Source: a virus
IMG/VR virus record: IMGVR_UViG_3300045988_115457
Strand: one strand, 5' to 3'
Length of the DNA stretch: 60,731 nucleotides
A model generated the notes under the pieces. That model made no database searches and was not told the origin of the DNA. It worked only from the letters and a program-made list of their open reading frames with translations. Positions 3,388 to 53,841 of this stretch are shown one piece after another (the first letter of the stretch is position 1; each line of letters opens with the position of its first letter). Both the position numbers and the translations under genes were made by a program.

Positions 3388-3538
3388 TGGTGATGGCAGG
3401 ATTCGAACCTGCATGATAGGAGTTATTTTTGCTGTTACATTTAAAACAGCCATGCCCGTTTATTTTTACAACCTTAGCCTAGGGTTAACCTATCTATAAA
3501 CATGTCACTTTAGCGTCTACTAATTTCGCCACATCACC
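3388..3538 (-). ncRNA. tRNA-like RNA A (151 nt): class-II tRNA frame with a 100-nt insert in place of the anticodon arm
   Basis: Minus strand: GGTGATG-TG-GCGAAATTAGTAGACGC...[100 nt]...GCAGG-TTCGAAT-CCTGC-CATCACC-A-CCA. Acceptor pairs 7/7, T loop is canonical, CCA is encoded. I found no 5-bp stem with a 7-nt loop. Confidence 0.55.
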
Positions 3539-3775
3539 ATGTTCGCCCGCCAATCTTCACAGACAGGCAGGCTGGGGTAAAAAGGTTAACAAAGCTATCT
3601 TAACAGCTCACTCTTGCGGATTATAGCTCTACCGGTTACAATAGTATCTTCCGTATTGTGAGACAATGTACTTTGTTTAATGCCTATCTGATCTTCGGAC
3701 AAATGCCGGAAGATACCCGTTACCGAACTGAAATAATAGTTCCGCTTTTCGAAGATCAGGTAGACATGGATTACT
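3539..3775 (-). promoter_or_regulatory. structured non-coding leader upstream of tRNA-like A
   Basis: 237 nt without an ORF. Two perfect 10-bp helices (3688-3697/3750-3759 and 3644-3653/3707-3716), all built on ATCTTC/GAAGAT, plus the shared box GTCTGTGAAGAT (3553-3564, minus strand). Confidence 0.35.
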
Positions 3776-4003
3776 TTAGTTTTTCACATTATTTTCACCA
3801 AACTTATGTTCTTGGCACCAGTTTGATTTCCCGATCTTGAAACCACCAATACCACAACGTAGATTCTTCTCACGCTCCCAATAACTCCCAGGTATGATAG
3901 CGGGTTCTTTCACTATTTCACTTGTAAAGTGAAGACAATTGCTACAGCATGGGCATTTCTTCTGAAACCCTTGCTTTTCTCTGTTTTCTGACTGTTTACT
4001 CAT
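3776..4003 (-). CDS. small Cys-rich (zinc-ribbon-like) protein
   Basis: 75 aa with CPCCSNC near the N-terminus and later C...C residues. Confidence 0.5.
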   Translation of the reverse strand: MSKQSENREKQGFQKKCPCCSNCLHFTSEIVKEPAIIPGSYWEREKNLRCGIGGFKIGKSNWCQEHKFGENNVKN

Positions 4004-4050
4004 TTTGCTTTATTTTTATCTCAAAACTTCCAAATAACAGCTATTTGGAA

Positions 4051-4488
4051 TCAAATGTAATTTTTGTTTCTTTGGACCTCTATCTCCATTAATTGCAATA
4101 GTCGATCTTCGTCGGGACTAGGAAGATATATTCCTGCTTCCCCAGAACTCCAGTTTCTAAAACGAGTAATTGCGTTACTCATTTCTTCTGTATCTAGTTC
4201 AGCGGAACTGCGTAGAACTTTGATGTTACCCAAATACTTATCAGAAACTTCCTTTATGAATATGTCTTTATTGCATAGTATCTTAAAATACTTTTGCTTT
4301 ACATATTCTAAGGTATTGCCTGTCTCACAGGCAAAATACCCTAAAATGACATGCAAATACCGGTTTTGTTTGTCGGTGCGTATCGGCTTCTTTTCTATAA
4401 GTTCTACTATTTTCCCGTTTTTAACAAGCAAAGCGGAACGGGTTTTAAACTGTTCCGCCTGCAATGGATTAGATAGATCGTATAACAT
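4051..4488 (-). CDS. ninB: NinB/Orf-like recombination mediator
   Basis: RTDKQNRYLHVILGYF resembles lambda NinB RSLDQNRKLWACLGDV. Size and position in a recombination module fit. Confidence 0.5.
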   Translation of the reverse strand: MLYDLSNPLQAEQFKTRSALLVKNGKIVELIEKKPIRTDKQNRYLHVILGYFACETGNTLEYVKQKYFKILCNKDIFIKEVSDKYLGNIKVLRSSAELDTEEMSNAITRFRNWSSGEAGIYLPSPDEDRLLQLMEIEVQRNKNYI

Positions 4489-4490
4489 AT

Positions 4491-4802
4491 TTAAAATGGC
4501 AAATCATCTGCAGGAGAAACACAGGGAGCTGAATCAACCTGTTCCATACTTGGAGCACTTGGTTGTGGATTATAAGTTTGCAAATCACCCAAGAAATAAT
4601 TTACCCCATCTTTCCTTTCTTCCTTCTTAGGGGAACAGGAGACATAGTGCGTGTAAGTGTTACTTCCAAATGTAGCAGGTTCTTTACGCTCACCTATCCA
4701 TATATTTAGGTAAATACGCTCTTTACCATCTTTACACATTACCTTTTTCATCTGCTCACGGGGAATTTCCGAAAGGCAGATACTACCAAATAAGCTACTC
4801 AT
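4491..4802 (-). CDS. putative single-stranded DNA-binding protein
   Basis: 103 aa ending in the SSB-type acidic tip ...PADDLPF. Lies between the NinB-like and Rad52-like genes. Confidence 0.4.
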   Translation of the reverse strand: MSSLFGSICLSEIPREQMKKVMCKDGKERIYLNIWIGERKEPATFGSNTYTHYVSCSPKKEERKDGVNYFLGDLQTYNPQPSAPSMEQVDSAPCVSPADDLPF

Positions 4803-4806
4803 ATTA

Positions 4807-5286
4807 TTACTTTTTAAATGTTATACTATACGATGTTGTACTTTGTTTAGATGGAGGATTTAAGGTAAAAACCTCTCCACTATCTTCATCAATTTCCGCT
4901 TTAGGTTTTGAAATTGCTTTTAAATATTCCTCCCTTTCTTTACATTGCTGTTCTATATATTCCCTTTGTTTAATAAGACGATTATAAACTGGATCGTTGC
5001 AAACGGAATAATCATATTTTATACCTGTTTCTTTTAATTGCAAAATAGCACCATTATAGCATGGACGCTCTCCTTTCCCATACTTCTCACATTCTATTAT
5101 AACAGCATCTTTTATTTCTCCACTTTTTAAAAATGCATTAATTGTTTCTGATAGACTTTTCATTTGTATAACCGCATCAATCGGATTTATATCACCATCA
5201 ATAACTTTGGAAATAAAAGCATTAGCCATTTTTTTTTGTTCCGTCTTGGAAGATGGAATTCTGTTGATTATTAGATCATTACTCAT
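4807..5286 (-). CDS. hypothetical protein
   Basis: 159-aa ORF with a 4-nt overlap with the upstream annealase gene. Confidence 0.65.
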   Translation of the reverse strand: MSNDLIINRIPSSKTEQKKMANAFISKVIDGDINPIDAVIQMKSLSETINAFLKSGEIKDAVIIECEKYGKGERPCYNGAILQLKETGIKYDYSVCNDPVYNRLIKQREYIEQQCKEREEYLKAISKPKAEIDEDSGEVFTLNPPSKQSTTSYSITFKK

Positions 5287-41587: not shown

Positions 41588-42004
41588 CTATTTTATAATA
41601 ACGGCTATTCCAGAAGCAACCCACGCCCTGTTCCTTGCGTTATAAGTCGTTTTAAAATCAATCAATCCATTCGCTCCCATTTTCTTTGCTTCGGAGACTA
41701 TTTTATCCATCATCCTTTTGCTAGATGGAGCATACTCATTATTCGTTTTTCCTGTATATCCTTCGTATGGGACAATTAGCCGTAGATTTTCGGCTGTTTC
41801 GCCTTTTCTCAACTTGCCAACAGTAAATACCACTTCTATATTAGATATTGGCTGGTAATTGAACCCTGTCACTGTAGGGCTAATGGTGAAACCATCTTTG
41901 GTGTATTCTCTGTAGTCAACAACATATACGGATTCGGTATACATGTCTTTAGTGCATCCGGATAGAACTAATATTATTATGATCGGATATAGGATATTTT
42001 TCAT
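41588..42004 (-). CDS. lipoprotein
   Basis: Signal peptide with lipobox ILVLSGC. Confidence 0.7.
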   Translation of the reverse strand: MKNILYPIIIILVLSGCTKDMYTESVYVVDYREYTKDGFTISPTVTGFNYQPISNIEVVFTVGKLRKGETAENLRLIVPYEGYTGKTNNEYAPSSKRMMDKIVSEAKKMGANGLIDFKTTYNARNRAWVASGIAVIIK

Positions 42005-42008
42005 GATT

Positions 42009-42893
42009 CTATTGTGTTATTTGGTTAGGGGTGATGAGCTCGCCTGTGTTCTTGTCTAATTCAAAATTTAAGACCTCTTTTTCTTCCGTTATATACGTGA
42101 TATTTATAGTAACAAGAATGGTATTATTCGGGGAATAGGAAGCATCCCAACTATTTATGACAAACTCATTATTATTAATATCACACATGTATTGCCAAAT
42201 ATAATGGGAAGAATTGCGAATATCATACCAACCGATCCTCAAAGGATCTTTAGTATGAATGCCCTCCCCTCCACTTACATCTATTACATGATACAAATCT
42301 AAAACTCTGCCATAATGAATATGTTTGCTTATAAGATTTAATTCATTATCATACACATGTCCTTCTGAAGCGGTTGCTTCTGGATATGCGGAATAGTTTT
42401 CAGATACATGTATACTATTATCAAACCAAAATGCCATATCCGTAGGCAAATGGGAACGAGTATTCAATGTTACTGTATGAACCTTACCATTCTCATAAGA
42501 ATATAGTTTTCTAATTCCCCAAAAACTCAAAATATCAGATTCATCTCTTAAATCAGCCAATAGATAGTATGTATTTTCATATTGAAGAATACTAAAAATT
42601 CGAACATACGAAGCGATAATATCTTTTTTATTTCCATATCCAAAATCTATATACAGCTTAGTCCCTTTTCCTATTCCTTCGGACACTTCAAAAAGGAATT
42701 TATTATCTTTACTAACCTTTATGGTGTAGCTTTCTTCGTTAAAATCAATATTACAGATAAAGCCATTGACTAAAAATACATTATTATCACCGGATTCCGT
42801 GTTTTCCTCATTATTTTGCTCTGGAACAGGATCACTTCCTTCGCTGCATCCAATAAGAAACAGCAAGGCAAATATTAGAAATACTTTATTCAT
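42009..42893 (-). CDS. lipoprotein
   Basis: Signal peptide with lipobox FLIGC. Confidence 0.7.
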   Translation of the reverse strand: MNKVFLIFALLFLIGCSEGSDPVPEQNNEENTESGDNNVFLVNGFICNIDFNEESYTIKVSKDNKFLFEVSEGIGKGTKLYIDFGYGNKKDIIASYVRIFSILQYENTYYLLADLRDESDILSFWGIRKLYSYENGKVHTVTLNTRSHLPTDMAFWFDNSIHVSENYSAYPEATASEGHVYDNELNLISKHIHYGRVLDLYHVIDVSGGEGIHTKDPLRIGWYDIRNSSHYIWQYMCDINNNEFVINSWDASYSPNNTILVTINITYITEEKEVLNFELDKNTGELITPNQITQ

Positions 42894-43050
42894 ATTTTGT
42901 GTGTATTATGGTTGTACGGAGGCAAAATAACATACAAATGCACACAAATGCAAATATTTCCTTACCTTTCTTTGGTTTTAGGTGATTTTTCTAGCATTAA
43001 ATAAAAAGCCCCACTATTTGGCGGGGCGAATATTATAATTAGAACTGATA

Positions 43051-43284
43051 CTACATTGTAGGTTTCTGTTTGGTTATTGAACCAAAATTATCAATTATTT
43101 CTATATCAGAAGGAGTTACGGATGTTTCATTAATATTGATTGAATCTTCTGATTTATTCGGAGAAATTGCTTTCCTTATCTTCTTCACATCATTGGTCAT
43201 TCCCCATAACTTGAAAAATAGAATAATTTGTAATATTCCGAATACGATGATTACGATAGATACAAATAGTGTGATACCTTCCAT
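43051..43284 (-). CDS. small single-pass membrane protein
   Basis: MEGITLFVSIVIIVFGILQIILFFKLWG... Confidence 0.55.
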   Translation of the reverse strand: MEGITLFVSIVIIVFGILQIILFFKLWGMTNDVKKIRKAISPNKSEDSININETSVTPSDIEIIDNFGSITKQKPTM

Positions 43285-43312
43285 GATATATTTATTTTTA
43301 ATCAGTTATTTG

Positions 43313-44278
43313 TCATAGTTCTTCTTTCTCCTTTTTACTTGGAAGATTTAGGTATTCAAAAGCTAATTCATCAACTTCCTTTCTCCGTTCGTTGACTCCG
43401 TTTAAAATATATCTAAAAGATGATATATAATTATCATCTATAAATTCCTTGATAATATCTTCTTCATATATGTTCTGAATATCAGTTTCATCTTCATATT
43501 TCCAATACATTTCTACCGAAAAAGGGACCTTGACATCATCACTGCTTAAATTTCTCCCATCTATTCTTATTTTATCAACTTCAATATTTACATCATAATC
43601 CCTTAAGACCGTTTCGACATCCATGCCAGCCAATTTATTTTCATCTTTATAATTAGCCTCCCAATATCTTACAACAGGTTGAGAAAAAGGAGAAGTAGAT
43701 AAGCACCACGATTTATCCAATATAGACAAATAACTATCATATTCATTCTTCCCTTCTTTTTTATAAATTTTGGGTTCTATTGAATAGCCAAATCTTAATT
43801 GCTCTACCTTGCTTTTTAAAGGAATCAGTTTAAAGCCAATATTAACCTCATCAACCCCTCCAAATGAATAATACTTGGTTGATATACTAGCTAATTCAAT
43901 TTTTACATATTGGTCTAAAGAATTATCTTGCTTAGCTTTTCTCCAGTATCTCGATATTGAATCCGCTTTAGAAGAATAAGTTTTATATTTATTATTCCAT
44001 TCGCTAGAAAGCTGTTTTTCTAATTTATCATCATGATATGTATATGAACTATAAGCCCTTCTTAATGTCAAGTTAGCATATTTAGCCCTCTTCGTATCAG
44101 TATCTAATGTGTTTTTGTTTATTGCCTGAATATGTTCATAAAACATTCCAAAAAGTGAATCTTTTTTTATTTCTTCATCAAGTTCTTTTAATGACAATGA
44201 CTCAAAAACTGATTTATTTAAATTATCAACACAACTGTAAAACAGTATCAAAGGTAGTAAATATAAAATATTTTTCAT
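43313..44278 (-). CDS. lipoprotein (321 aa from the internal start)
   Basis: MKNILYLLPLILFYSC lipobox at the internal Met. The upstream part of the listed ORF is low-quality and overlaps the divergent gene. Confidence 0.6.
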   Translation of the reverse strand: MKNILYLLPLILFYSCVDNLNKSVFESLSLKELDEEIKKDSLFGMFYEHIQAINKNTLDTDTKRAKYANLTLRRAYSSYTYHDDKLEKQLSSEWNNKYKTYSSKADSISRYWRKAKQDNSLDQYVKIELASISTKYYSFGGVDEVNIGFKLIPLKSKVEQLRFGYSIEPKIYKKEGKNEYDSYLSILDKSWCLSTSPFSQPVVRYWEANYKDENKLAGMDVETVLRDYDVNIEVDKIRIDGRNLSSDDVKVPFSVEMYWKYEDETDIQNIYEEDIIKEFIDDNYISSFRYILNGVNERRKEVDELAFEYLNLPSKKEKEEL

Positions 44279-44648
44279 ATCTGTGTGTGTTATGTTATAC
44301 AATGATAAAATAAAAGACAACTGTTCATAAATCCAAATAAATCCACATATATCTTCATTCACCACGTAAAAAAGTTGTTTTTTCTTGCTTTTTTCAAAAA
44401 TAGTTTGTATGTTTGCGGCGTTCAACATATATAAATCGACTGTGCGGGCGGAGCTTGCATTAATCATGCGGGCATTTTTTATGCTTGTATTTAAAATATT
44501 GAGGTATATTGTACCCCCGTGTGGAACTGTAATGGAACCACAGCATAGTCGATATGTGTTGAACAGCGGGAAAGGCAATATACCTTTTTTATTTATTGTT
44601 ATGTTCAACAATATCGACAATCATCATCGAACGAATAATAGTAGTTTG

Positions 44649-45389
44649 ATGGCGACGTTAATCCACGATACGGATAGAATGAGTTCGCTTGAAATTGCGG
44701 AACTCACAGGAAAACAGCACGCACATATTATGCGTGATATTCGTTCTCTTTTAGCGCAAGGAGTATCACAATCCAATTTTGGATTGTCATCCTACAAGCA
44801 ACCACAGCCAAGAGGAGGATATAAAGAACTCCCCTGTTTCGAACTCACCAAGAAAGGCTGTCTGATCCTCGCCTCTGGTTACGACGCAGTGCTCCGTGAG
44901 AAGATTATTGATCGCTGGGAACAACTCGAACTAGAGAAGCGCAAACCTCAAACTCCCCAAACCTACCTCGAAGCCCTAAAAGCCCTAGTATCATCGGAAG
45001 AGGAAAAGCAACGGTTAGCACTGGAGAAGCAACAACTGGAACAGCAAAACGCCAAACTCCAGCCAAAGGCAGCCTTTGCCGACGCAGCCTTCGCCACCGA
45101 CGATAAGGTAGACATAGGAATGTCCGCCAAGATCCTGAAACTCGGATTCGGGCGAAACACTCTATTCGACAAGCTAAGGAAAGCAGGCGTATTCTTCGCC
45201 AACCGAAACGAGCCCAAACAGCGGTTTATTGATGCCGGATACTTCGAGATGAAAGAGAAGTTCATCGAGCGCAACAACCATCCGGGGTTTGTCGTAACCA
45301 AAGTGCTAGTTACCCAAAAGGGATTGGCTTATCTGAACCACCTGTTTGGAGGAAATCCTTCTGATGGGAAGCTAGCTAGGATAGTATAA
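44649..45389 (+). CDS. Rha-family regulatory protein with a KilA-C/ANT C-terminal domain (antirepressor)
   Basis: MSSLEIAELTGKQHAHIMRDIRSL (Rha N-terminus), coiled coil, then DIGMSAKILKLGFGRNTLFDKLRKAGV. Confidence 0.78.
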   Translation: MATLIHDTDRMSSLEIAELTGKQHAHIMRDIRSLLAQGVSQSNFGLSSYKQPQPRGGYKELPCFELTKKGCLILASGYDAVLREKIIDRWEQLELEKRKPQTPQTYLEALKALVSSEEEKQRLALEKQQLEQQNAKLQPKAAFADAAFATDDKVDIGMSAKILKLGFGRNTLFDKLRKAGVFFANRNEPKQRFIDAGYFEMKEKFIERNNHPGFVVTKVLVTQKGLAYLNHLFGGNPSDGKLARIV

Positions 45390-45599
45390 CATCCCCCTTC
45401 CCTAATTCATAATTTACAGCAGTCCGTTTCAATGCCGGACAGCCACAACTATATCAAAAATATACGAATATGCCAGAAATTACAATCATTGTATTATGCC
45501 TGCTTGCCGGATATAAGATGTTCGGCAATGATAACGACAGGTTTTTCATGTGCTAAGCAAGAGCGACACGATAGTATCAACACATTAAATAAAATCATT

Positions 45600-46241
45600 A
45601 TGGAAACAAGAAGTTTGGAATTATGGTCTACCGATAGGATTGATTTGGTAGAAGCGAAAAACGGTCAAGCCGTGACCTCTTCTTTGGTGGTTGCGGATTA
45701 CTTCCACAAAGAACATGGTAAAGTCTTAAGGGCTATAAATCAGTTAGAATGTAGCATAAATTTCAGACAAGCCAATTTTGGCTTATCTGACTATACAAAG
45801 AAAAATGGGAATGTAAGCAAAACATATCCCATGTACTACATGACCCGTGACGGCTTCACCTTCCTCGCCATGGGTTTCACCGGAAAGGTAGCCGCCCAGT
45901 TCAAGGAAGCCTACATCAACGCCTTCAACGAAATGGAAGAGAAGCTCCGATCCGAGCGTTGCACCAAGTACGCAGAACGCATCGTCAGAAAACAGGTGAA
46001 GGAGTTCAACCAATCATTGCAAGAAACGCTCGCCAGCGGTCGCAAGAAGCACGGAAACACTTACGGTGGATTGATACCCTACGGAAAGGAAGAAGTTGCG
46101 TACAACCCGAAAGAAAGCATGGAATCGAATCTAAAGCGGATATTCGGTCAAGTACATGAGATGTGCAAGGATGGATTCTTGATGTCCGCACTCGCTGTCG
46201 AGACAAACAAGATGATGCTGGATTTGATAAACAAGAAATAG
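45600..46241 (+). CDS. Rha-family phage regulatory protein
   Basis: TSSLVVADYFHKEHGKVLRAINQLE...YYMTRDGFTFLAMGFTGKVAAQFKEAYINAF. Confidence 0.75.
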   Translation: METRSLELWSTDRIDLVEAKNGQAVTSSLVVADYFHKEHGKVLRAINQLECSINFRQANFGLSDYTKKNGNVSKTYPMYYMTRDGFTFLAMGFTGKVAAQFKEAYINAFNEMEEKLRSERCTKYAERIVRKQVKEFNQSLQETLASGRKKHGNTYGGLIPYGKEEVAYNPKESMESNLKRIFGQVHEMCKDGFLMSALAVETNKMMLDLINKK

Positions 46242-46266
46242 AGTTGTGTTAGGGGCTTCGGACCGG

Positions 46267-46287
46267 CACATTAGTTGACGCCAATCA
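46267..46287. repeat. repeat R2 (CACATTAGTTGACGCCAATCA), inverted copy of R1 at 17233-17255
   Basis: See R1. Lies in the 3' UTR between the Rha gene and its terminator. Confidence 0.7.
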
Positions 46288-46292
46288 GCAGG

Positions 46293-46325
46293 AAAGGGTA
46301 GCCTTAGGGCTGCCCTTTCTTTATT
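46293..46325 (+). terminator. rho-independent terminator
   Basis: AAAGGGTAGCC-TTAG-GGCTGCCCTTT followed by CTTTATT. Confidence 0.7.
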
Positions 46326-46344
46326 GCATTATGGTAAATTGAGA

Positions 46345-46593
46345 TTAAACCTTTGATAGCATTTCTGTCAGATAATTATTTAATTTCCTAGCTGATTCAA
46401 TAGAAATATGATCTGTTTTCCCATCCATTTTAATACCTAAAGTTAAAAGCCCGTCATAGGTTTTATAAAAGGCTATCTCCATAAAAGGGACTCCTATGAT
46501 GTGAGAGATAATACACGAGTTTCTCTCTGATTCAATTTCTAAGATTTCATTTTCTTCAAGAAGTGCAAGTGGCTTCTCCATTGCTTTTTCCAT
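46345..46593 (-). CDS. hypothetical protein
   Basis: 82-aa ORF coupled to the upstream Bro gene. Confidence 0.6.
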   Translation of the reverse strand: MEKAMEKPLALLEENEILEIESERNSCIISHIIGVPFMEIAFYKTYDGLLTLGIKMDGKTDHISIESARKLNNYLTEMLSKV

Positions 46594-46594
46594 A

Positions 46595-47479
46595 TTACGC
46601 TGCTATTTTAGAATTGTAGAACTCAATAATAAACTTTTTCCCTATTTCCGTCCAATACATGTGCTGTCTTGTCTTAATCTCTCCTGTGCTACTCCTGTAT
46701 GGATATGGGCGGTGCACTGTATACCCTTTGTTTCTGTATTTAGAATAGAGATAATACACTCTACTTTCCTTATACTGTATTCCCCATTGGCAAAGAAGCT
46801 TATTCAACTTGATGTCGGAAATTCCCAAACAAGCCGCTATCATATTTACGGTAAGATATCCTGTACTTGATAATGTCTTGTCATAATAGTCTACTTTTGG
46901 TGCAGCTTGGTTTATTTTCTTTTCTTGTAGTTCTATAATTGCTTGTTGTTGCTCGCTTTGGGCTTCAAGTTGCTTTAATCTTTCTTCTCTCTTTGCCAAA
47001 GTGGCTTGCGCAAGCAATAAGGCTCGTGCCATTATTTCTTCGGGAGTATCATCCTGTTTGGTGGCTATATATCCTCCAGTAGTGCGTATTTCACGCAAGA
47101 TTTGTTTTATACCCTTCTTAAACTGCTTAGCTATTGGCTTGCGAGATTGCATCAATACTTCATACAAACCATCCTCTGTGAGAAAGTTACATTCTCTTCT
47201 TTGACCTGATACAAACAATGTTTGGGTCAGCTTTTCATCTTCATCAACCGTTCTCACCATAGTTGATACATCTGAATGCTCAATCCATTCTGCCACATCC
47301 TTAGCAAGGAACAAGGGAGATTCAGATGAACCATATACATTGATCTCATGCCCTAAAAAATTGGATTTACAAATAAGACTTAGACTTGCATCATCCCCTT
47401 TCACATCATTTGATATAAAAAGACTATTGCTGATAGGAATAATTTCACTATCTTTGTCTCTGTAATTTAATGCTTTCAT
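46595..47479 (-). CDS. Bro-N / KilA-C antirepressor
   Basis: FLGHEINVYGSSESPLFLAKDVAEWIEHSD (Bro-N), coiled coil, then VDYYDKTLSSTGYLTVNMIAACLGISDIKLNKLLCQWGIQY (KilA-C). Confidence 0.8.
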   Translation of the reverse strand: MKALNYRDKDSEIIPISNSLFISNDVKGDDASLSLICKSNFLGHEINVYGSSESPLFLAKDVAEWIEHSDVSTMVRTVDEDEKLTQTLFVSGQRRECNFLTEDGLYEVLMQSRKPIAKQFKKGIKQILREIRTTGGYIATKQDDTPEEIMARALLLAQATLAKREERLKQLEAQSEQQQAIIELQEKKINQAAPKVDYYDKTLSSTGYLTVNMIAACLGISDIKLNKLLCQWGIQYKESRVYYLYSKYRNKGYTVHRPYPYRSSTGEIKTRQHMYWTEIGKKFIIEFYNSKIAA

Positions 47480-47910: not shown

Positions 47911-49398
47911 CTAAACATTGTCCTTTTTGACTGATTCAGAAGATTCATTCTTTTCTTCCTCCTCAATCTCTTTCAGGACTTCATCGACCCTTTCGGCATT
48001 ACCGGCAAACAAAATCCCCTCTCTCCGTGACCATACTTTACCATTTATTGCACTAACTGCCGTTGTTACCCGTTCGTCAATGTCATCAATCATATACGGA
48101 ACCAAATCCACATCAATATCAATAGTCTGGGACGCCTTGTCAAATTCGGATGGGTTAATATCCGCCAAAGCTGATACCAAGAAGTTTACCCTCCGTTGAA
48201 AAAACTCTCCAATTACTTCCGCATGATTAGATACCGCCATGTGCGCACCCATAAAAATATACCTGAACGCTTTCCCTGAAATGGCATTTCCAAGACCTTT
48301 CAATTCTTGCGGTGATATACGTGGGGTATTCGTCAGGTCGTATGCCCTGTTAGTAAGCCCTTCGAGTTCCAATTTAACCGTATCAGGAACCTGATTCCAG
48401 GTCAGATATTGAGCGTTCGCTTTATCTCCAGTCAATTGTATGATTCTGTTTCGTTTCTTCCCTGTAAAGCCTGACACGTCCCCAAAGAGCATTAAATACG
48501 GGAAGAAGTGGTAGTCTATACAATCGGCATAGCTTGATAATATCTTCTCTATGCGTACACGTATAGTCTTTATCTTATGGCAGTAGGTCTCCGGGCGATA
48601 GCCATATAAAACAGGGAGCTTTTTAAACCCATGCCTGAAAGACTTCTCCTCTACCGCTTCCCACCCATTAGTATTTTCCCACTGGTAAACATGGGTAGCG
48701 GTAACAGTTTGAAAGCATACTATTTCTACATCGTCCAGGTCTTTCTTTTTATATTCACGTGAGAAGGCGACCAAATCTCCGGCATCATCAAAGAAAGGAT
48801 AAAGTTTATCTCCCCTGAATGGCGACCATATTACGCTACGAAGCTTATTTTGCGGTCTTACACTTCCCCCGAAAACCTTCTGTATTTTATTCCAGAATTT
48901 AGTCCAGAACGAATCATCTTTGACTGCATACCAGTATTCGGCACATTCCTGTTCAGAAAGCCAGGAACGAACTATGCGTTTATTCTGGTATTTTATTTTA
49001 TTCTTCTTCAGTACTTGTTGGATAGCATAAAATAGCCCTTTTTCATCTTCATTGGACGGAGCGCAATCCATCTTAGGCTCAACCCCTACTGTAAACGCTG
49101 TTTGAATATTGGTTATATCTTGCTCCAGCGGGATAGATATACGGTTACACGGCTCTGTACGTTTTTTAGCTGGGATAGTAGTGCTTTGACCGGTACTATC
49201 ATTCCATTCTTCCCCTTCCTTCTCTTCAACAACTTCGATGTCCGGGTATTTTTCTTTATCCACAATGATTTCATGCAAATCAGCATTCCAATCCTTCCAG
49301 TTTTCACCGGTATTGGGTTCCTCCGTTTTACGCCCTTTCTTCAAATATTCGATCTTCTGATCTACATCTTCTAATGCTAAAATCTCTTCTAATGTCAT
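47911..49398 (-). CDS. portal protein
   Basis: 495 aa immediately downstream of TerL. Acidic C-terminal tail. Confidence 0.8.
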   Translation of the reverse strand: MTLEEILALEDVDQKIEYLKKGRKTEEPNTGENWKDWNADLHEIIVDKEKYPDIEVVEEKEGEEWNDSTGQSTTIPAKKRTEPCNRISIPLEQDITNIQTAFTVGVEPKMDCAPSNEDEKGLFYAIQQVLKKNKIKYQNKRIVRSWLSEQECAEYWYAVKDDSFWTKFWNKIQKVFGGSVRPQNKLRSVIWSPFRGDKLYPFFDDAGDLVAFSREYKKKDLDDVEIVCFQTVTATHVYQWENTNGWEAVEEKSFRHGFKKLPVLYGYRPETYCHKIKTIRVRIEKILSSYADCIDYHFFPYLMLFGDVSGFTGKKRNRIIQLTGDKANAQYLTWNQVPDTVKLELEGLTNRAYDLTNTPRISPQELKGLGNAISGKAFRYIFMGAHMAVSNHAEVIGEFFQRRVNFLVSALADINPSEFDKASQTIDIDVDLVPYMIDDIDERVTTAVSAINGKVWSRREGILFAGNAERVDEVLKEIEEEEKNESSESVKKDNV

Positions 49399-49410
49399 AT
49401 TGATATATTT

Positions 49411-50679
49411 TTAACGTCCAAAAATCCCCGAATAATCTTTAGGTTTCTGAATTTTACCAAGAAGCTCACCCAATACATAATAACGGGCTGCATCGATAGC
49501 GTGGTTATCATGATCTTCCGGTTCATTTATATAGTTCCCATCTTTATCTTTAGCCCACACATATTTCCGTAGTTCTTTCTGAAGATTGTATGAACGTTTA
49601 GTTACAAAAATCTCCATGGTCTTCATTTTGTCTATACCTGCGTTAATAGAACCCGCTCCCTTTTCGACAGGATATATTTTTATCCCTCCATTGTGTATTT
49701 CTTGAATCAACCGTGGGTCAGCACTATCGGCTATAACCTTCAATCCCCATGGACGAAGCGTTTTAATGATGTCAGAGGAAAGAAGCCCGGTCCGGTAATC
49801 CACTTCATCCAAATACAGAGCATTATCAATAATTCCGCAACGAATAGAGGCGGACGGGTCATGAGTATACCCGAAATCTTGCCCAAAAGCAACCTTTTTG
49901 CACCAAATCGGGAACTCATCAACAATGCCCCATTTTTTGAATACAGCACCTTCTGCCACGTCAGCCCATCGTCCGATAACCACATGAGCATATTTATCCG
50001 GATCATTTACTTTCATATCCTCCACCTCTTTCAGAAACTCCGGTGAAAGATTCTCCAAATTATCAAAATAGGTGGTGTGAATATGAAGTACATTCGGATG
50101 GGTAGAAACCTGAACTTGCACACCGTCAATCTCTACGAGCTTGTGAGTATTCTCGATGTACTTTTTATAAATGAAGTGATTAGAGTCGCAGGGGTTCATT
50201 ATGATGATAATCCGGTTCTGAATCCCTTTCTTACGGATAGAGAGCATTATTTTATCGAACTCTTCTTCATTCGTCCATTCTTCCGCTTCATCGCAGACGA
50301 AAGTTGTGATACCCTGAATAGATTTCAGCTTTGCCGTCTGATTACCGGAAGAAGTCTTGATGCCTCGGAACATGATACGGCTATTAGTCATTTTATTGAC
50401 TATATCCGTCTTGGTAGTCTTGAAATACTTAGTTGTTCCATCTAGCTCTATCTTCTCCATCATTTCCGGGATGATAGACATACCAGCGGAAACCATCGTG
50501 TAACGGGTATAAAGAATCTGATGTACTATCTTCTCTACGGGAGTCATTTCAAAGGTCAACCGTTCGATGAAGGTGGAAGTGTTAAACGATTTTCCACTGC
50601 CACGACCGCCGGTGATAAGAATAATGAATTTTTCCTTATCCTCATATAACGGGTAATATATTTTTTGAGGTACGATCAT
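49411..50679 (-). CDS. terL: terminase large subunit
   Basis: Walker A TGGRGSGKS, Walker B FVCDEAEEW, C-terminal nuclease-type acidic residues. 422 aa. Confidence 0.92.
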   Translation of the reverse strand: MIVPQKIYYPLYEDKEKFIILITGGRGSGKSFNTSTFIERLTFEMTPVEKIVHQILYTRYTMVSAGMSIIPEMMEKIELDGTTKYFKTTKTDIVNKMTNSRIMFRGIKTSSGNQTAKLKSIQGITTFVCDEAEEWTNEEEFDKIMLSIRKKGIQNRIIIIMNPCDSNHFIYKKYIENTHKLVEIDGVQVQVSTHPNVLHIHTTYFDNLENLSPEFLKEVEDMKVNDPDKYAHVVIGRWADVAEGAVFKKWGIVDEFPIWCKKVAFGQDFGYTHDPSASIRCGIIDNALYLDEVDYRTGLLSSDIIKTLRPWGLKVIADSADPRLIQEIHNGGIKIYPVEKGAGSINAGIDKMKTMEIFVTKRSYNLQKELRKYVWAKDKDGNYINEPEDHDNHAIDAARYYVLGELLGKIQKPKDYSGIFGR

Positions 50680-51143
50680 TTCACTTTGTCTTTAATCCAA
50701 GAATCAATACTGATACCGTGGTCTATATTGGTAGGTATATCGGCATCTTCAGGCTTTGTCTCTTGCATAGGCTTTCCCCATAGCTTTTCGGTCAGTTCCT
50801 TTAACGTAGCGATAGAACCCTTACCGGAATCTTTATATAATGCTCTGCAAATATTAATGACCCACATGGGGGTATCGTCTTTCTCTATAATATCCTCAAC
50901 CTCTTTTTTGGTACATTGCATAACATACACTACAACCTCCTTCCATTCGTCATAGGATATATTATAGGCTTTTTTTGCAATAGTATATAGCTTAGGCTTC
51001 CGGCCTCTGTTTGGAGGCTGGTTTTCGCTTGTGAAACGGCGCCCCTTTCCTTTTATTCGTTCATAATCACCAGATGCCATTTTTGCTCGTTTTTTGCTCG
51101 TTTTCCCGCTATTTTTCCGATTTATAATTAAGATTTTCTCCAA
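50676..51143 (-). CDS. terS: terminase small subunit
   Basis: Basic N-terminus KGRRFTSENQPPNRGRKPK. ATGA overlap with terL. Alternative start MASGDY. Confidence 0.6.
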   Translation of the reverse strand: MEKILIINRKNSGKTSKKRAKMASGDYERIKGKGRRFTSENQPPNRGRKPKLYTIAKKAYNISYDEWKEVVVYVMQCTKKEVEDIIEKDDTPMWVINICRALYKDSGKGSIATLKELTEKLWGKPMQETKPEDADIPTNIDHGISIDSWIKDKVK

Positions 51144-51496
51144 TCAATTCCACGTTTAGCAAGAGCTCTTCTTGCTGCTTTTACAGACTCGTTCTCTGAT
51201 CTTCCTTTAGCTGCTTTTAATAACTGTTCCACGATGCTAGGTTCCCTGATTTTTCCAGAACGAACTAGCATATTATATTCAGCTCTAAGTTCTGTTCTTC
51301 GGTTCTGATATTCTACATCTTTACGATTCTGCCTAGCAAGGATAGCTTGACCGGCTCTATTTCGATAGTTGCCTTTCGCTAAAGCAACGTCTCCAAATCC
51401 TTGACGTCCATAGCCTTTTGAGGCCAAATACTCTTCTTCGGCCATTACTTTAGTTCGGGTATTGCTATTTCTTATTCCACCGCTAGTCTTTGCCAT
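51128..51496 (-). CDS. basic small protein, MAKTSGGIR paralog 3 (122 aa)
   Basis: The N-terminus MAKTSGGIRN is shared with two upstream paralogs. Arg/Lys-rich. Confidence 0.7.
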   Translation of the reverse strand: MAKTSGGIRNSNTRTKVMAEEEYLASKGYGRQGFGDVALAKGNYRNRAGQAILARQNRKDVEYQNRRTELRAEYNMLVRSGKIREPSIVEQLLKAAKGRSENESVKAARRALAKRGIDWRKS

Positions 51497-51498
51497 AA

Positions 51499-51800
51499 TT
51501 ACCTTCTCTTTCTTCTCAAGATATATTCATTAGTTTGATAACGCCCATTTGGTGCCATCGGATTCATTCTTCTTCCACTTTCTACAGCACTTGAAACACG
51601 ACCTACAGCTTTGAAAAATCTTTGAGGACTAACGCCTGTATTATGAGTATAGGATTGTATTCTTGCAATTTGAGCATTTACTTCATTGCGACTTTTCATT
51701 CTTATATTTCCAGTCCGTGTTCCTCCAAAAGAAGCACCAGGTCTAGTTCTACGGGTAGCTTTTACACTGCCCCCCTAATTCCTCCTGATGTCTTTGCCAT
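51499..51800 (-). CDS. MAKTSGGIR paralog 2, split at a G6 run (needs a -1 shift or 1-nt correction; otherwise a 12-aa peptide plus a 66-aa ORF)
   Basis: The ATG at 51800 gives MAKTSGGIRGAV*. The -1 frame opens exactly inside GGGGGG (51770-51775) and continues GSVKATRRTRPGASFGGTRTGNIRMKSRNEV...RRKRR. Confidence 0.5.
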
Positions 51801-52036
51801 TATTTCTTCCTCCTTCGTTTTAAGGTACTCCCCGATAATGTTGGATTAAGCATCAATACTTCAACTGGATAACCGGTATTTCTCGATAGATTATCCATAA
51901 CTGTCCTAGTTGCTTTATATATTCTATCCCGATTAGCATTCCCATAAGTCCTAATTAAGCGGTGCATTACTTTCTTTGCATCTACTCCGCTTCTGATTCT
52001 ATCACGTCCTCTAATCCCTCCACTTGTTTTAGCCAT
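51800..52036 (-). CDS. basic small protein, MAKTSGGIR paralog 1 (78 aa)
   Basis: Start at the internal Met, which avoids overlap with the ParB-like gene. MAKTSGGIRGRDRIRSG...KRRRKK. TAATG overlap with paralog 2. Confidence 0.65.
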   Translation of the reverse strand: MAKTSGGIRGRDRIRSGVDAKKVMHRLIRTYGNANRDRIYKATRTVMDNLSRNTGYPVEVLMLNPTLSGSTLKRRRKK

Positions 52037-52037
52037 T

Positions 52038-53132
52038 TCAATCTCCTTTCTTAACTCTGTTAGCCATAAACTGTTCGACATATATAATGCTGTTTTGCAC
52101 GCATATATCTTTTATTTTATCTCCACCACCGTAAACTATCATATTAGGAATATCCTTTCCTGATATTTCACGGGCAATCTGTATTTCTTCCTTTAAATAC
52201 TCCTGCCTGTCAGAATATCCACGGGTCGCAAAAGCGTTATACCCGTCAGGAATACCTAAACGATTCCACTTTTGAAACTTCTTTGCCACATTCAAATCAG
52301 CCCACACCTTCACACCGCATTCCTGCCAATAGCGGGAAATCCACCTCTTTTTGTATATCTGATGTAATCCGTAGGCAACAGGGGTTGTATCGAACAAGGA
52401 CAAGTTTGGCTCTATGACGGCCTCACATCCGCTATTAAGAACAGTTGTCGGGTCTTTCCATATTGCTTCAAACCGGTAATCCTCTACATAAAAATGATAG
52501 GTAGATATTCCCTTCTTCTGCCTGGTATCAGCGCCCCATGCTGATAAAGGAATTACAAGACCGCTTACTGGCTGTTCGTCCGCCCTTAAATTAGGAATGT
52601 CAAAATCATTATTGCTGTCATATATCCTGTCACCAAGCATCATATCGTAGAAATCAGCCTTTTCTATATCCTCTTCGCTTTCTTCTTCCTGTTGTTCCTC
52701 TGAACTACGCTCTGAAGACTTTTGTTCCGGCTCGTGCCACACCTCAAATCCCCAATCATCAAGCTCTTTGCTATCCCACTCATTGGCAATCATATCCCAG
52801 TCTGTCTCTCCGAATGGATTATTGTCTTGAATAAGCATTTGACGAAGCTTTTCTACTGGCATATCTTCCGGTAAAATACAGCATGGCACTTCTTTCCATC
52901 CTAAATGCCTGTAAGCATGCAAACGCATATTTCCCCCAATTACAATGTATCCACCGTTATATGGGTAAACAAGAATATCCCTTGCTTCTGTCATTTCGGG
53001 AAGCTCTTTTATTGATTTACAAAGCTTACGAAATCTTTCTCCTTTGATAAGTCTAGGATTCTTCGGTAATCCCGCTATTTGCCCATCATTGGGATACACT
53101 TTAGATATTACTATGTTTTCTCTTTTTATCAT
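52038..53132 (-). CDS. ParB N-terminal (nuclease-like) domain protein with a DUF4417-like C-terminal domain
   Basis: ParB/Srx box YIVIGGNMRLHAYRHLG. The C-terminal ISTYHFYVEDYRFEAIWKDP pattern resembles DUF4417. Confidence 0.65.
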   Translation of the reverse strand: MIKRENIVISKVYPNDGQIAGLPKNPRLIKGERFRKLCKSIKELPEMTEARDILVYPYNGGYIVIGGNMRLHAYRHLGWKEVPCCILPEDMPVEKLRQMLIQDNNPFGETDWDMIANEWDSKELDDWGFEVWHEPEQKSSERSSEEQQEEESEEDIEKADFYDMMLGDRIYDSNNDFDIPNLRADEQPVSGLVIPLSAWGADTRQKKGISTYHFYVEDYRFEAIWKDPTTVLNSGCEAVIEPNLSLFDTTPVAYGLHQIYKKRWISRYWQECGVKVWADLNVAKKFQKWNRLGIPDGYNAFATRGYSDRQEYLKEEIQIAREISGKDIPNMIVYGGGDKIKDICVQNSIIYVEQFMANRVKKGD

Positions 53133-53563
53133 ACCTTATCTATTATACCATTGTCTTTCAACCGAGATACAATTCCAGTGTAAATATACTCTATATCCTT
53201 CCGAAAGTCCTTATAATTATTGTAGAGAACAACCACAGTTTCGATATTGTGGGAAATAAATGTTTTATCGCTGATATTTACCGATTCGGCAATCTTATCC
53301 CGAAGTCCTTTTGGCATTCTTCCACCGGCCAATACACTGGGAGCATAAAGGAAAAGAATGATAAATATAAACTTCTTTCTGATATGAACGCTATCCTTAT
53401 TTCCCGGACAATCCCTAAAGTCTTGTATTTCGCAAAACCATTTATATATAGATGGAATATAATCCAGATCTGACATAATAGGAGCAGATAATTCAGACTC
53501 TCTTTCCGACAATCTGGATTTCTGCTCTCTGATAGATTTTAACTCTGATATTTCTGAAAACAT
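53129..53563 (-). CDS. hypothetical protein
   Basis: 144-aa ORF. Contains hairpin family copy 4. Confidence 0.65.
   Translation of the reverse strand: MFSEISELKSIREQKSRLSERESELSAPIMSDLDYIPSIYKWFCEIQDFRDCPGNKDSVHIRKKFIFIILFLYAPSVLAGGRMPKGLRDKIAESVNISDKTFISHNIETVVVLYNNYKDFRKDIEYIYTGIVSRLKDNGIIDKV
53233..53252. repeat. palindromic hairpin family copy 4 (CCACAGT-TTCGAT-ATTGTGG), inside a CDS
   Basis: 7-bp arms with one G-T pair. Same 7-6-7 geometry and GGGAAA right flank as copy 2. Confidence 0.55.
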
Positions 53564-53802: not shown

Positions 53803-53841
53803 AAAAAAACTTCCCCAAATATCAAAAAGACATTTGGGGAA
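53803..53841 (-). terminator. rho-independent terminator
   Basis: Minus strand TTCCCCAAAT-[11 nt]-ATTTGGGGAA followed by GTTTTTTTAA. Confidence 0.7.

Follow-up and report, generated by a model that had tools for sequence, protein, structure and literature searches.

Three small, highly basic genes (P1, P2 and P3) that share the N-terminal nonapeptide MAKTSGGIR, hereafter the tag, were detected upstream of the terminase genes in the virus record IMGVR_UViG_3300045988_115457, the whole 60,731-nucleotide (nt) stretch of which was analyzed as the window and supplies the coordinates used below. The locus reads, entirely on the minus strand, in the order 144-amino-acid (aa) gene, ParB_N/DUF4417 gene, P1, P2, P3, terminase small subunit gene (terS), terminase large subunit gene (terL) and portal gene (Table 1), so the placement of P1–P3 between a ParB-like nuclease gene and terS in the initial annotation stands. 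A degenerate back-translation of MAKTSGGIR matched the window exactly three times, each time on the minus strand at the start of one of these genes (52036, 51800, and 51496), and had no match in 100 shuffles. The three copies differ at seven of their nine codons, and the codon differences described previously (GCT/GCA/GCA, AAA/AAG/AAG, AGT/TCA/AGC, ATT/ATT/ATA, and AGA/AGG/AGA) were confirmed. P1–P3 had been called paralogues, which is the wrong term: only the nine-residue tag is common to them, no similarity was detectable among the three bodies that follow it, in keeping with the almost complete divergence already described, and true paralogy was therefore rejected. The high basicity of the three proteins was also confirmed, with isoelectric points (pI) of 11.7 for P1, 12.0 for frame-corrected P2, and 10.7 for P3, as were the basic ends KRRRKK of P1 and RRKRR of the P2 body.

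Of the three genes said to begin with the tag, all have the start site, but P2 is not an intact gene. The span assigned to it (51800-51499) is 302 nt long, which is not a multiple of three; its frame reads MAKTSGGIRGAV, stops after 12 codons at a run of six Gs (stop codon at 51762-51764), and the body resumes in the −1 frame. P1 recurs as identical or near-identical proteins in about 10 viral contigs. No significant Pfam or PHROG match was found for P1, corrected P2, or P3, and the P1 and P2 bodies had no tblastn match in deposited phages. In an AlphaFold2 model of P3, residues 1–12 were disordered, with predicted local distance difference test (pLDDT) values below 50 across the tag, and the body was helical; a Foldseek search with this model returned nothing in the PDB and one uncharacterized homologue in BFVD.

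Searching other phages for the MAKTSGGIR prefix, as the initial annotation had proposed, showed that the tag recurs: its DNA pattern was present in 51 viral contigs and 49 metagenome stretches, with a chance expectation in the viral collection that we estimate at about one. In a scan of the genome collection, matches in three Bacteroidales metagenome-assembled genomes were true and the remainder were due to chance. Allowing two mismatches, we gathered 95 distinct tagged proteins with 50 different tag DNAs and 16 body families, between which there was no BLASTP similarity. The consensus MAKT[SA]GG[IVL]R is almost invariant as a peptide across these 95 proteins, and its codons include four for Ala, four for Gly, six for Ser, and six for Arg, with Ser drawn from both AGY and TCN and Arg from both AGR and CGN. 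Massive synonymous variation across so many unrelated bodies bears out the earlier statement that the peptide, and not the DNA, is under selection; because codon diversity is high and the peptide nearly constant, a DNA or RNA element and simple paralogy can be ruled out, and a DNA-level repeat as the source of the shared nonapeptide was rejected on the same grounds. The tagged proteins are 66–216 aa long and have one body each, with no polypeptide of 2–15 domains among them, and their bodies are all basic (pI 9.7–12). Directly C-terminal to the tag lies a Gly/Ser/Arg-rich stretch. The tagged set thus combines a short N-terminal peptide common to unrelated small basic proteins, as in capsid-targeting sequences (CTS) of the T4 type, with a flexible linker on diverse cargo, as in encapsulin systems. 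Literature searches on MAKTSGG, DUF4417, Salyersviridae/BV01, and phage Versailles found no description of the motif, so the shared tag is undescribed as far as we could find, and it looks like a sorting tag for phage effector modules.

In these gut Bacteroides phages, tagged genes occur in arrays of one to four that start 1–25 nt after a ParB_N/DUF4417 gene and end before terS. This placement holds wherever upstream sequence was available, and for DUF4417 proteins ranging from 99% down to 42% identical to that of the window. The tag is retained where DUF4417 has diverged to 47% identity, and it drifts with the DUF4417 lineage, taking the forms MAKTSGE[IV]R, MSKASGGVR, MGRNS[SG]G.. / MGRNSGG.., and MANRK[AV][AV]GVR. 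The MGRNSGG.. variant includes the cultured Bacteroides phage Versailles (L215, ON453897), which offers a possible model for virion proteomics; at 3450-5210 of this genome, a gene for a DUF4417 'nuclease' is followed by one for a tagged HExxH peptidase (WAK79146.1, MGRNSSGTRGG...). Prophages have tagged genes too, among them that of a Bacteroides finegoldii strain encoding P0008. At two distant DUF4417 loci of 50–53% identity (L155, 4541-5965; L156, 4541-6481), two to three downstream genes start with MANRK[AV][AV]GVR or MANRKPGRSRKTSGG, and the first downstream gene at each encodes an ADP-ribosyltransferase (PF03496/PF01129).

The genes of the head did not follow the tag in this way. Contigs L004, L034, and L040 encode DUF4417 proteins at 96–98% identity (97% for L040) and identical tags, with portals at 24% identity, scaffolds at 25%, and terL products that are not detectably similar. 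Contig L078 and phage BS-TP2, with terL at 84–94% and portal at 63–66% identity, have neither DUF4417 nor an N-terminal tag. In contig L116 (3501-4967), terL and portal are 98% and 99.6% identical, DUF4417 is truncated at residue 290, tagged genes are missing, and the terS N-domain has been swapped for the helix-turn-helix-type terS of DUF4417-less phages; this contig is a natural recombinant that marks the boundary of the module. The tag is thus not co-inherited with the head and scaffold genes and shows a double dissociation from terL, portal, and scaffold. Because the tag is not tied to head genes, the cassettes are accessory, and the gene for a partner that reads the tag most likely belongs to the stretch bounded by DUF4417 and the terS N-domain, both included. 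Pfam and PHROG searches of the open reading frames (ORFs) from portal to major capsid protein found no prohead protease or MuF domain in the head module of the window, and neither the tagged proteins nor the head-module ORFs matched Phage_Mu_F, as MuF toxins would. So far as comparison of sequences reaches, these results show a tag that is under peptide-level selection, modular, and tied to the DUF4417 module.

The ParB/DUF4417 protein gave an AlphaFold2 model with a pLDDT of 76, in which the N-domain matched ParB-CDP/CTPgS, Noc, KorB, and sulfiredoxin by Foldseek (E 2e-6 to 1e-3), as a ParB fold should; a sequence search of the PDB gave weak ParB matches only. A CutC-like Foldseek match of the DUF4417 part was marginal and was not trusted. 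About 5,000 homologues of DUF4417 were found, and fusions of a ParB-CTPase fold with DUF4417 are known to be phage-enriched (10.1101/2025.10.10.680097).

The P3 body is a domain of ~110 residues without a Pfam model. A profile search of 1.84 billion representative proteins produced 557 matches to it, many of them internal to proteins of 2–6 thousand aa. Pfam domains on these giant proteins included InPase, MuF_C, PBECR1, ART-PolyVal, Kinase-PolyVal, LPD38, LPD23, and MPTase-PolyVal+ArdcN, and the P3 domain lay directly C-terminal to InPase in all four InPase-bearing proteins scanned (Table 1). From the company it keeps, the P3 body looks like a new LPD-type domain of polyvalent proteins. Homology to domains embedded in multi-domain polyvalent proteins was found for the P3 body and for the tagged LPD3 body of L069, and was not shown for P1 or P2. 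The P3 body also occurs in Lactobacillus phages LR1 and JNU_P7, where it adjoins phosphoadenosine phosphosulfate (PAPS) reductase and ParB-like nuclease genes upstream of terS, and in DUF4417-less Bacteroides prophages and phages, where it has no N-terminal tag. Other tagged bodies include a CdiA-CT tRNase domain (the G body, PF18451 CdiA_C), LPD3 (30 bits against a Pfam cut-off of 27), a HExxH zincin peptidase with weak matches, and an ADP-ribosyltransferase (PF03496, 45 bits against a cut-off of 23.4) that carries the tag variant of the MANRK lineage. A local phmmer comparison of the other 15 body families with 150 P3-domain proteins gave no convincing match.

Like polyvalent modules, the tagged genes are encoded beside the packaging genes for portal and terminase. 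Such modules have been predicted to be packaged in the capsid, released at invasion, and early-acting, and solo forms of them have been noted adjoining structural genes (Iyer et al. 2017, PMC5512222). By their domain matches, the tagged bodies are solo effector-type modules of the kind otherwise strung together in polyvalent proteins. The proposal in the initial annotation that P1–P3 may be cargo proteins draws genuine support from this, in that the P3 body and other tagged bodies match the repertoire predicted to be packaged and injected (PMC5512222).

The run of six Gs (G6) that breaks P2, which the initial annotation had overlooked, lies just after its tag and is the only G/C homopolymer of at least six in the 60.7-kb window. 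The same G6 allele was found in three independent assemblies of this phage, and the sister lineage (L163-165) has G7 and an intact 100-aa P2. The phage of the window is present in the metagenomes SRR30514976, ERR14021484, and ERZ28563866. We considered an assembly error behind the P2 frameshift and rejected it, since the same G6 allele is present in three other samples. A G tract is found in the genes of the B and D bodies, where the end of the tag (...ATT AGG) runs into it; both AGG and GGG are minority codons in this genome. Across 48 poly-G loci (L004-L051 plus the L160-L214 range, some possibly being the same contig from two collections), tract lengths were G6 (n = 8), G7 (n = 28), G8 (n = 7), G9 (n = 3), and G10 (n = 2), with 30 in frame and 18 out of frame. 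Lengths vary between contigs with identical flanks (G7/G8/G9 or G7–G10), and no complete locus has a damaged downstream body ORF; the 18 out-of-frame alleles all retain one of 90 or 94 aa. Three contigs lack the tract and have GGT AGC instead.

Frameshifts were rare in the adjoining DUF4417 and terL genes. Occasional frameshifts at short homopolymers (A4 to A5, G4 to G5) were observed in other cassettes (L145 at ~3560-3580 and L153 at ~4577-4600) and in the DUF4417 genes of L006 and L020; these represent the background rate of error or pseudogene formation, and some cassettes decay.

Poly-G phase variation is known from the simple-sequence contingency loci of Neisseria, Campylobacter, and Haemophilus. 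The tract described here is alike in being a G homopolymer in the 5′ coding region that shifts the frame, in differing by 1–4 nt among near-identical genomes, and in leaving the downstream ORF intact, and it is unlike them in residing in an accessory gene of a Bacteroides virus and in being seen from consensus sequences. It looks like a hypermutable contingency, or phase-variable, switch that would vary which cassette is expressed. In the phage of the window, P2 is predicted to be off, as it has G6 instead of G7. Slippage by −1 on G6 would yield the very product of the G7 allele, RGGSVK, and could therefore allow P2 to be expressed at a low level.

Terminal peptides were also seen in lineages without DUF4417. 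Phages with a PAPS reductase gene and a ParB_N-only gene encode three to four small basic proteins around the ParB gene that end in G[LM]S[NG]G or GLI[SV]G (L078, 2109-4533; L081, 1597-4573), one of which has a P3-type body. Three annotated proteins of Lactobacillus phage JNU_P7 (L076, 3621-5508) end in GS[TF]GS[KR]GG, and solo P3-domain proteins elsewhere often start with MGGRGSSS..., MGRGTS..., or MAKSAGGGGR. These C-terminal peptides may be the counterpart of the N-terminal tag. Taken as a whole, the observations suggest that effector modules near ParB and terS commonly bear terminal tags, each specific to its lineage.

Table 1. Features of the tagged array and its neighborhood (window coordinates), with the positions of the P3 domain in InPase-bearing proteins
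Feature	Coordinates	Strand	Remarks
144-aa gene, phrog_38368	53129..53563	-	first of unit; 4-nt overlap with start of DUF4417 gene
ParB/Srx-CTPase-fold N-domain fused to DUF4417, 364 aa	52038..53132	-	Pfam DUF4417 6e-41, weak ParB_N; phrog_940 'nuclease'
P1, 78 aa, intact	51800..52036	-	tag codons 52010-52036; body GRDR...; ends KRRRKK
P2 5′ fragment, MAKTSGGIRGAV then stop	51762..51800	-	tag codons 51774-51800
G6 homopolymer just after P2 tag	51770..51775	- (C6 on + strand)	in-frame allele is G7
P2 body, 90 aa, undamaged, −1 frame	51499..51771	-	GSVKATRRTRPG...RRKRR (GSVKATRR...RRKRR)
P3, 122 aa, intact	51128..51496	-	tag codons 51470-51496; helical body
terS-like gene, phrog_15125/DUF5681 type	50676..51080	-	N-terminal part travels with DUF4417/tag module
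terL	49411..50679	-	Pfam Terminase_3 + Terminase_3C
SPP1-type portal	47911..49398	-	Pfam SPP1_portal
P3 domain in InPase-bearing proteins	P0272 1580-1691; P0277 1619-1742; P0281 1831-1938; P0278 58-177		after InPase

The 144-aa gene that opens the locus co-occurs with DUF4417 in related loci at 38–100% identity. A terminator-like hairpin was detected on the minus strand at 53811-53841, between an Ant-like gene and the 144-aa gene and just upstream of the latter, and no terminator was predicted from the 144-aa gene through terL. A single transcription unit running from the 144-aa gene through DUF4417 and the cassettes to the terminase genes is suggested by this arrangement, and because no terminator was predicted along it, the cassettes are probably co-transcribed with the packaging genes. 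The coupling of the genes by TAATG that had been described holds for P1/P2 but not for the other two junctions, which read TGAAATG (DUF4417/P1) and TAATTATG (P2/P3). A tandem direct repeat, two copies of AACGAGCAAAA, lies at 51081-51104, directly upstream of the terS ATG, and has a counterpart in L145 and L153, two copies of AACGGCGAAAA; this repeat may be a regulatory or translation-related element. Farther along, accessory genes split the head module between portal and scaffold (41588-47479). They include an Ant/Bro-N antirepressor-like gene (46595-47479), two Ant/Rha-like genes on the plus strand (44385-46241), and two to three ORFs with lipoprotein-type signal peptides (41588-42004, 42009-42893, and probably one within 43313-44620).

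We propose that P1–P3 would be three cassettes of a tagged effector array, each cassette consisting of a disordered nine-residue address peptide, a short Gly/Ser/Arg linker, and an unrelated basic single-domain body. The address peptide would be read by a partner from the same mobile module, for which the likeliest candidate is the ParB-CTPase/DUF4417 protein encoded directly upstream, possibly together with the terS N-domain. Such a reader, or hub, would assemble the modules into what amounts to a polyvalent protein without covalent links. Their joint action would fall at or near the time of genome delivery, with incorporation into the virion and co-injection as the most probable route. That the tag is an address peptide docking effector modules to a partner from the DUF4417 module, probably for delivery with the DNA, has in our judgment about an even chance of being right; within it, we infer both the identity of the reader and incorporation into the virion. 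A role in genome delivery is favored because of the kinds of cargo, their basic charge, and the lack of a predicted terminator up to terL. More tentatively, and doubtful at this breadth, lineage-specific terminal peptides of tailed phages in general may direct interchangeable single-domain effector modules to a ParB-family hub beside terS for co-injection, with a poly-G switch varying the cargo between generations; such a general tag system would do the work of polyvalent proteins in a programmable, non-covalent way.

The initial annotation had instead likened the tag to the capsid-targeting sequence of the T4 internal proteins, and a direct version of that idea, in which the tag would attach to the inside of the procapsid, be it to scaffold, major capsid protein, or portal, with no role for DUF4417 and possible cleavage after GGIR, is in our view unlikely. 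A short terminal peptide followed by a flexible linker and variable basic cargo is what capsid targeting would look like, the genes sit at the start of the packaging and head block, and the cargo is of the same types as known effectors packaged in heads, T4 Alt and MuF toxins among them (PMC5512222). In contig L025/L175, moreover, a tagged gene adjoins a portal-like gene with no DUF4417. Yet the identical tag accompanies portals and scaffolds that are only 24% and 25% identical, phages with near-identical terL and portal have no tag or a different, C-terminal one, no prohead protease or MuF domain was detected in the head module, and the tag has no sequence resemblance to the T4 CTS. T4-style targeting to a capsid core is accordingly not the best fit for a tag that follows the DUF4417/terS-N module. 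In favor of such targeting, the GG[IVL]R core may be akin to encapsulin loading peptides such as GSL[KR] and GIRK. The strict adjacency of DUF4417 and the co-variation of the tag with the DUF4417 lineage would also be expected if the tagged proteins were cytoplasmic clients, which the ParB/Srx-fold/DUF4417 protein binds, modifies, activates, or neutralizes in the cell and which are never packaged, for example through nucleoside triphosphate (NTP)-dependent loading onto phage DNA near pac or the restraint of a toxic ADP-ribosyltransferase or tRNase. ParB-fold proteins are NTP-dependent hubs, sulfiredoxin of the same fold acts on a protein substrate (10.1101/2025.10.10.680097), and L116 shows the tagged genes to be accessory to head assembly. 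We consider this unlikely all the same, as the body repertoire is that of delivery-phase effectors (PMC5512222), an operon with terS and terL would suggest late expression, ill-suited to host takeover unless the proteins are stored for the next cell, and no residue of the conserved core G-G-[IVL]-R is an obvious site of modification, MANRKVVGVR lacking Ser and Thr altogether.

Two further explanations were weighed. The peptide could give toxic small proteins a shared short lifetime or activation step, either as an N-terminal degron or through protease cleavage after Arg9, as its N-terminal, exposed, and disordered position and the potential toxicity of several bodies (tRNase, ADP-ribosyltransferase, and peptidase) would allow; this would leave the strict link to DUF4417 and the lineage switch to C-terminal tags unexplained, and we know of no match of the tag to ClpX or Lon N-terminal motifs, and we regard it as very unlikely. 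Slightly less likely still is a nucleic-acid element, in which the junction of a purine-rich gene end and the first 27 nt of the next gene acts as a recombination linker or translation signal and the peptide has no function. Cassettes clearly shuffle at this boundary, a Shine-Dalgarno-like AGGAGG lies within the codons for RRRKK, and the stop of one gene is followed closely by the ATG of the next, but the 50 tag DNAs use both Ser and both Arg codon families for an almost invariant peptide, the window copies themselves differ at most codons, and the tag is kept where DUF4417 identity has fallen to 47%. Several observations also weigh against an address peptide read by a DUF4417-module partner. 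Contig L025 (the same as L175) is a single exception to the linkage, with a tagged zincin peptidase and no DUF4417 detected nearby, and the DUF4417 domain matched no informative solved structure by Foldseek. A cytoplasmic partner, if there is one, would not entail virion delivery, and a literature search found no proteomics for any tag-bearing phage. The tag is found neither at the start of giant polyvalent proteins nor ahead of the P3 domain within them. For P1 and P2, no function is predicted and homologues were detected only inside this phage group; they would count as effectors by association alone. The poly-G variation, lastly, was read from assembled consensus sequences.

Several characterized systems resemble the array in part. 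The T4 internal proteins IPI, IPII, and IPIII, and Alt, also bear an N-terminal peptide of ~10 residues on unrelated, small, basic, and fast-evolving proteins, and share with the tagged genes hyperplastic loci, an ADP-ribosyltransferase cargo, and a presumed role in co-delivery with DNA and counter-defense. The T4 CTS binds the scaffolding core. Here there is no sequence similarity to the CTS, no LxE-type cleavage motif in the Gly/Ser/Arg-rich flank that follows the tag, and no prohead protease or scaffolding core gene detected, and the tag follows the ParB/DUF4417 gene, so the T4 model is an analogy and not a family membership. Polyvalent proteins and MuF toxins (PMC5512222) have the same module repertoire, terminase/portal context, ParB-superfamily domain, and rapid shuffling, but the modules described here are separate single-domain proteins, each tagged, that are neither fused nor linked to MuF, and the ParB domain here, a fusion partner of DUF4417, was not scored as DdrB-like. 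In phage P1, the Dar system includes DdrB, which has a ParB-like domain (PMC5512222) and is a precedent for a ParB-family protein in packaged cargo. The Dar proteins (DarA, DarB, DdrA, and DdrB) are likewise accessory, head-internal anti-restriction proteins that are loaded hierarchically; unlike P1–P3 of the window, they are large, their targeting regions are not a shared short tag, and no homology to them was detected.

Outside the phage head, encapsulin cargo peptides similarly use a short terminal peptide and flexible linker to address diverse cargo to one compartment. A possible further likeness is a core of small residues followed by an aliphatic and then a basic one, as in GG[IVL]R. Most encapsulin peptides, however, are at the C-terminus, and the HK97-fold shell is their direct binding partner. 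The tag, in contrast, is uncoupled from capsid gene type, which argues against a capsid-lineage-specific receptor. The polymorphic-toxin markers MIX, for the type VI secretion system, and LXG, for the type VII secretion system, resemble the tag in pairing an N-terminal marker with interchangeable C-terminal effectors, in occurring in arrays, and in their arms-race evolution, but they are domains of at least 100 residues tied to secretion systems, whereas the tag is nine residues in a phage packaging neighborhood.

The array is best classed among phage-delivered effector systems. Should the tag prove to be a delivery address, a peptide of nine residues would suffice to load arbitrary proteins into or alongside the particles of temperate Bacteroides phages, which would offer a simple handle for engineered protein delivery into dominant gut bacteria. 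It would also explain how ADP-ribosyltransferases, tRNases, and peptidases are brought to bear at invasion by phages that have neither MuF nor giant polyvalent proteins, and the P3 body would define a new polyvalent-protein domain. For DUF4417, a widespread and phage-enriched partner of the ParB-CTPase fold, this would be a first functional lead, and the poly-G contingency switch would be added to the known routes by which gut phages diversify.

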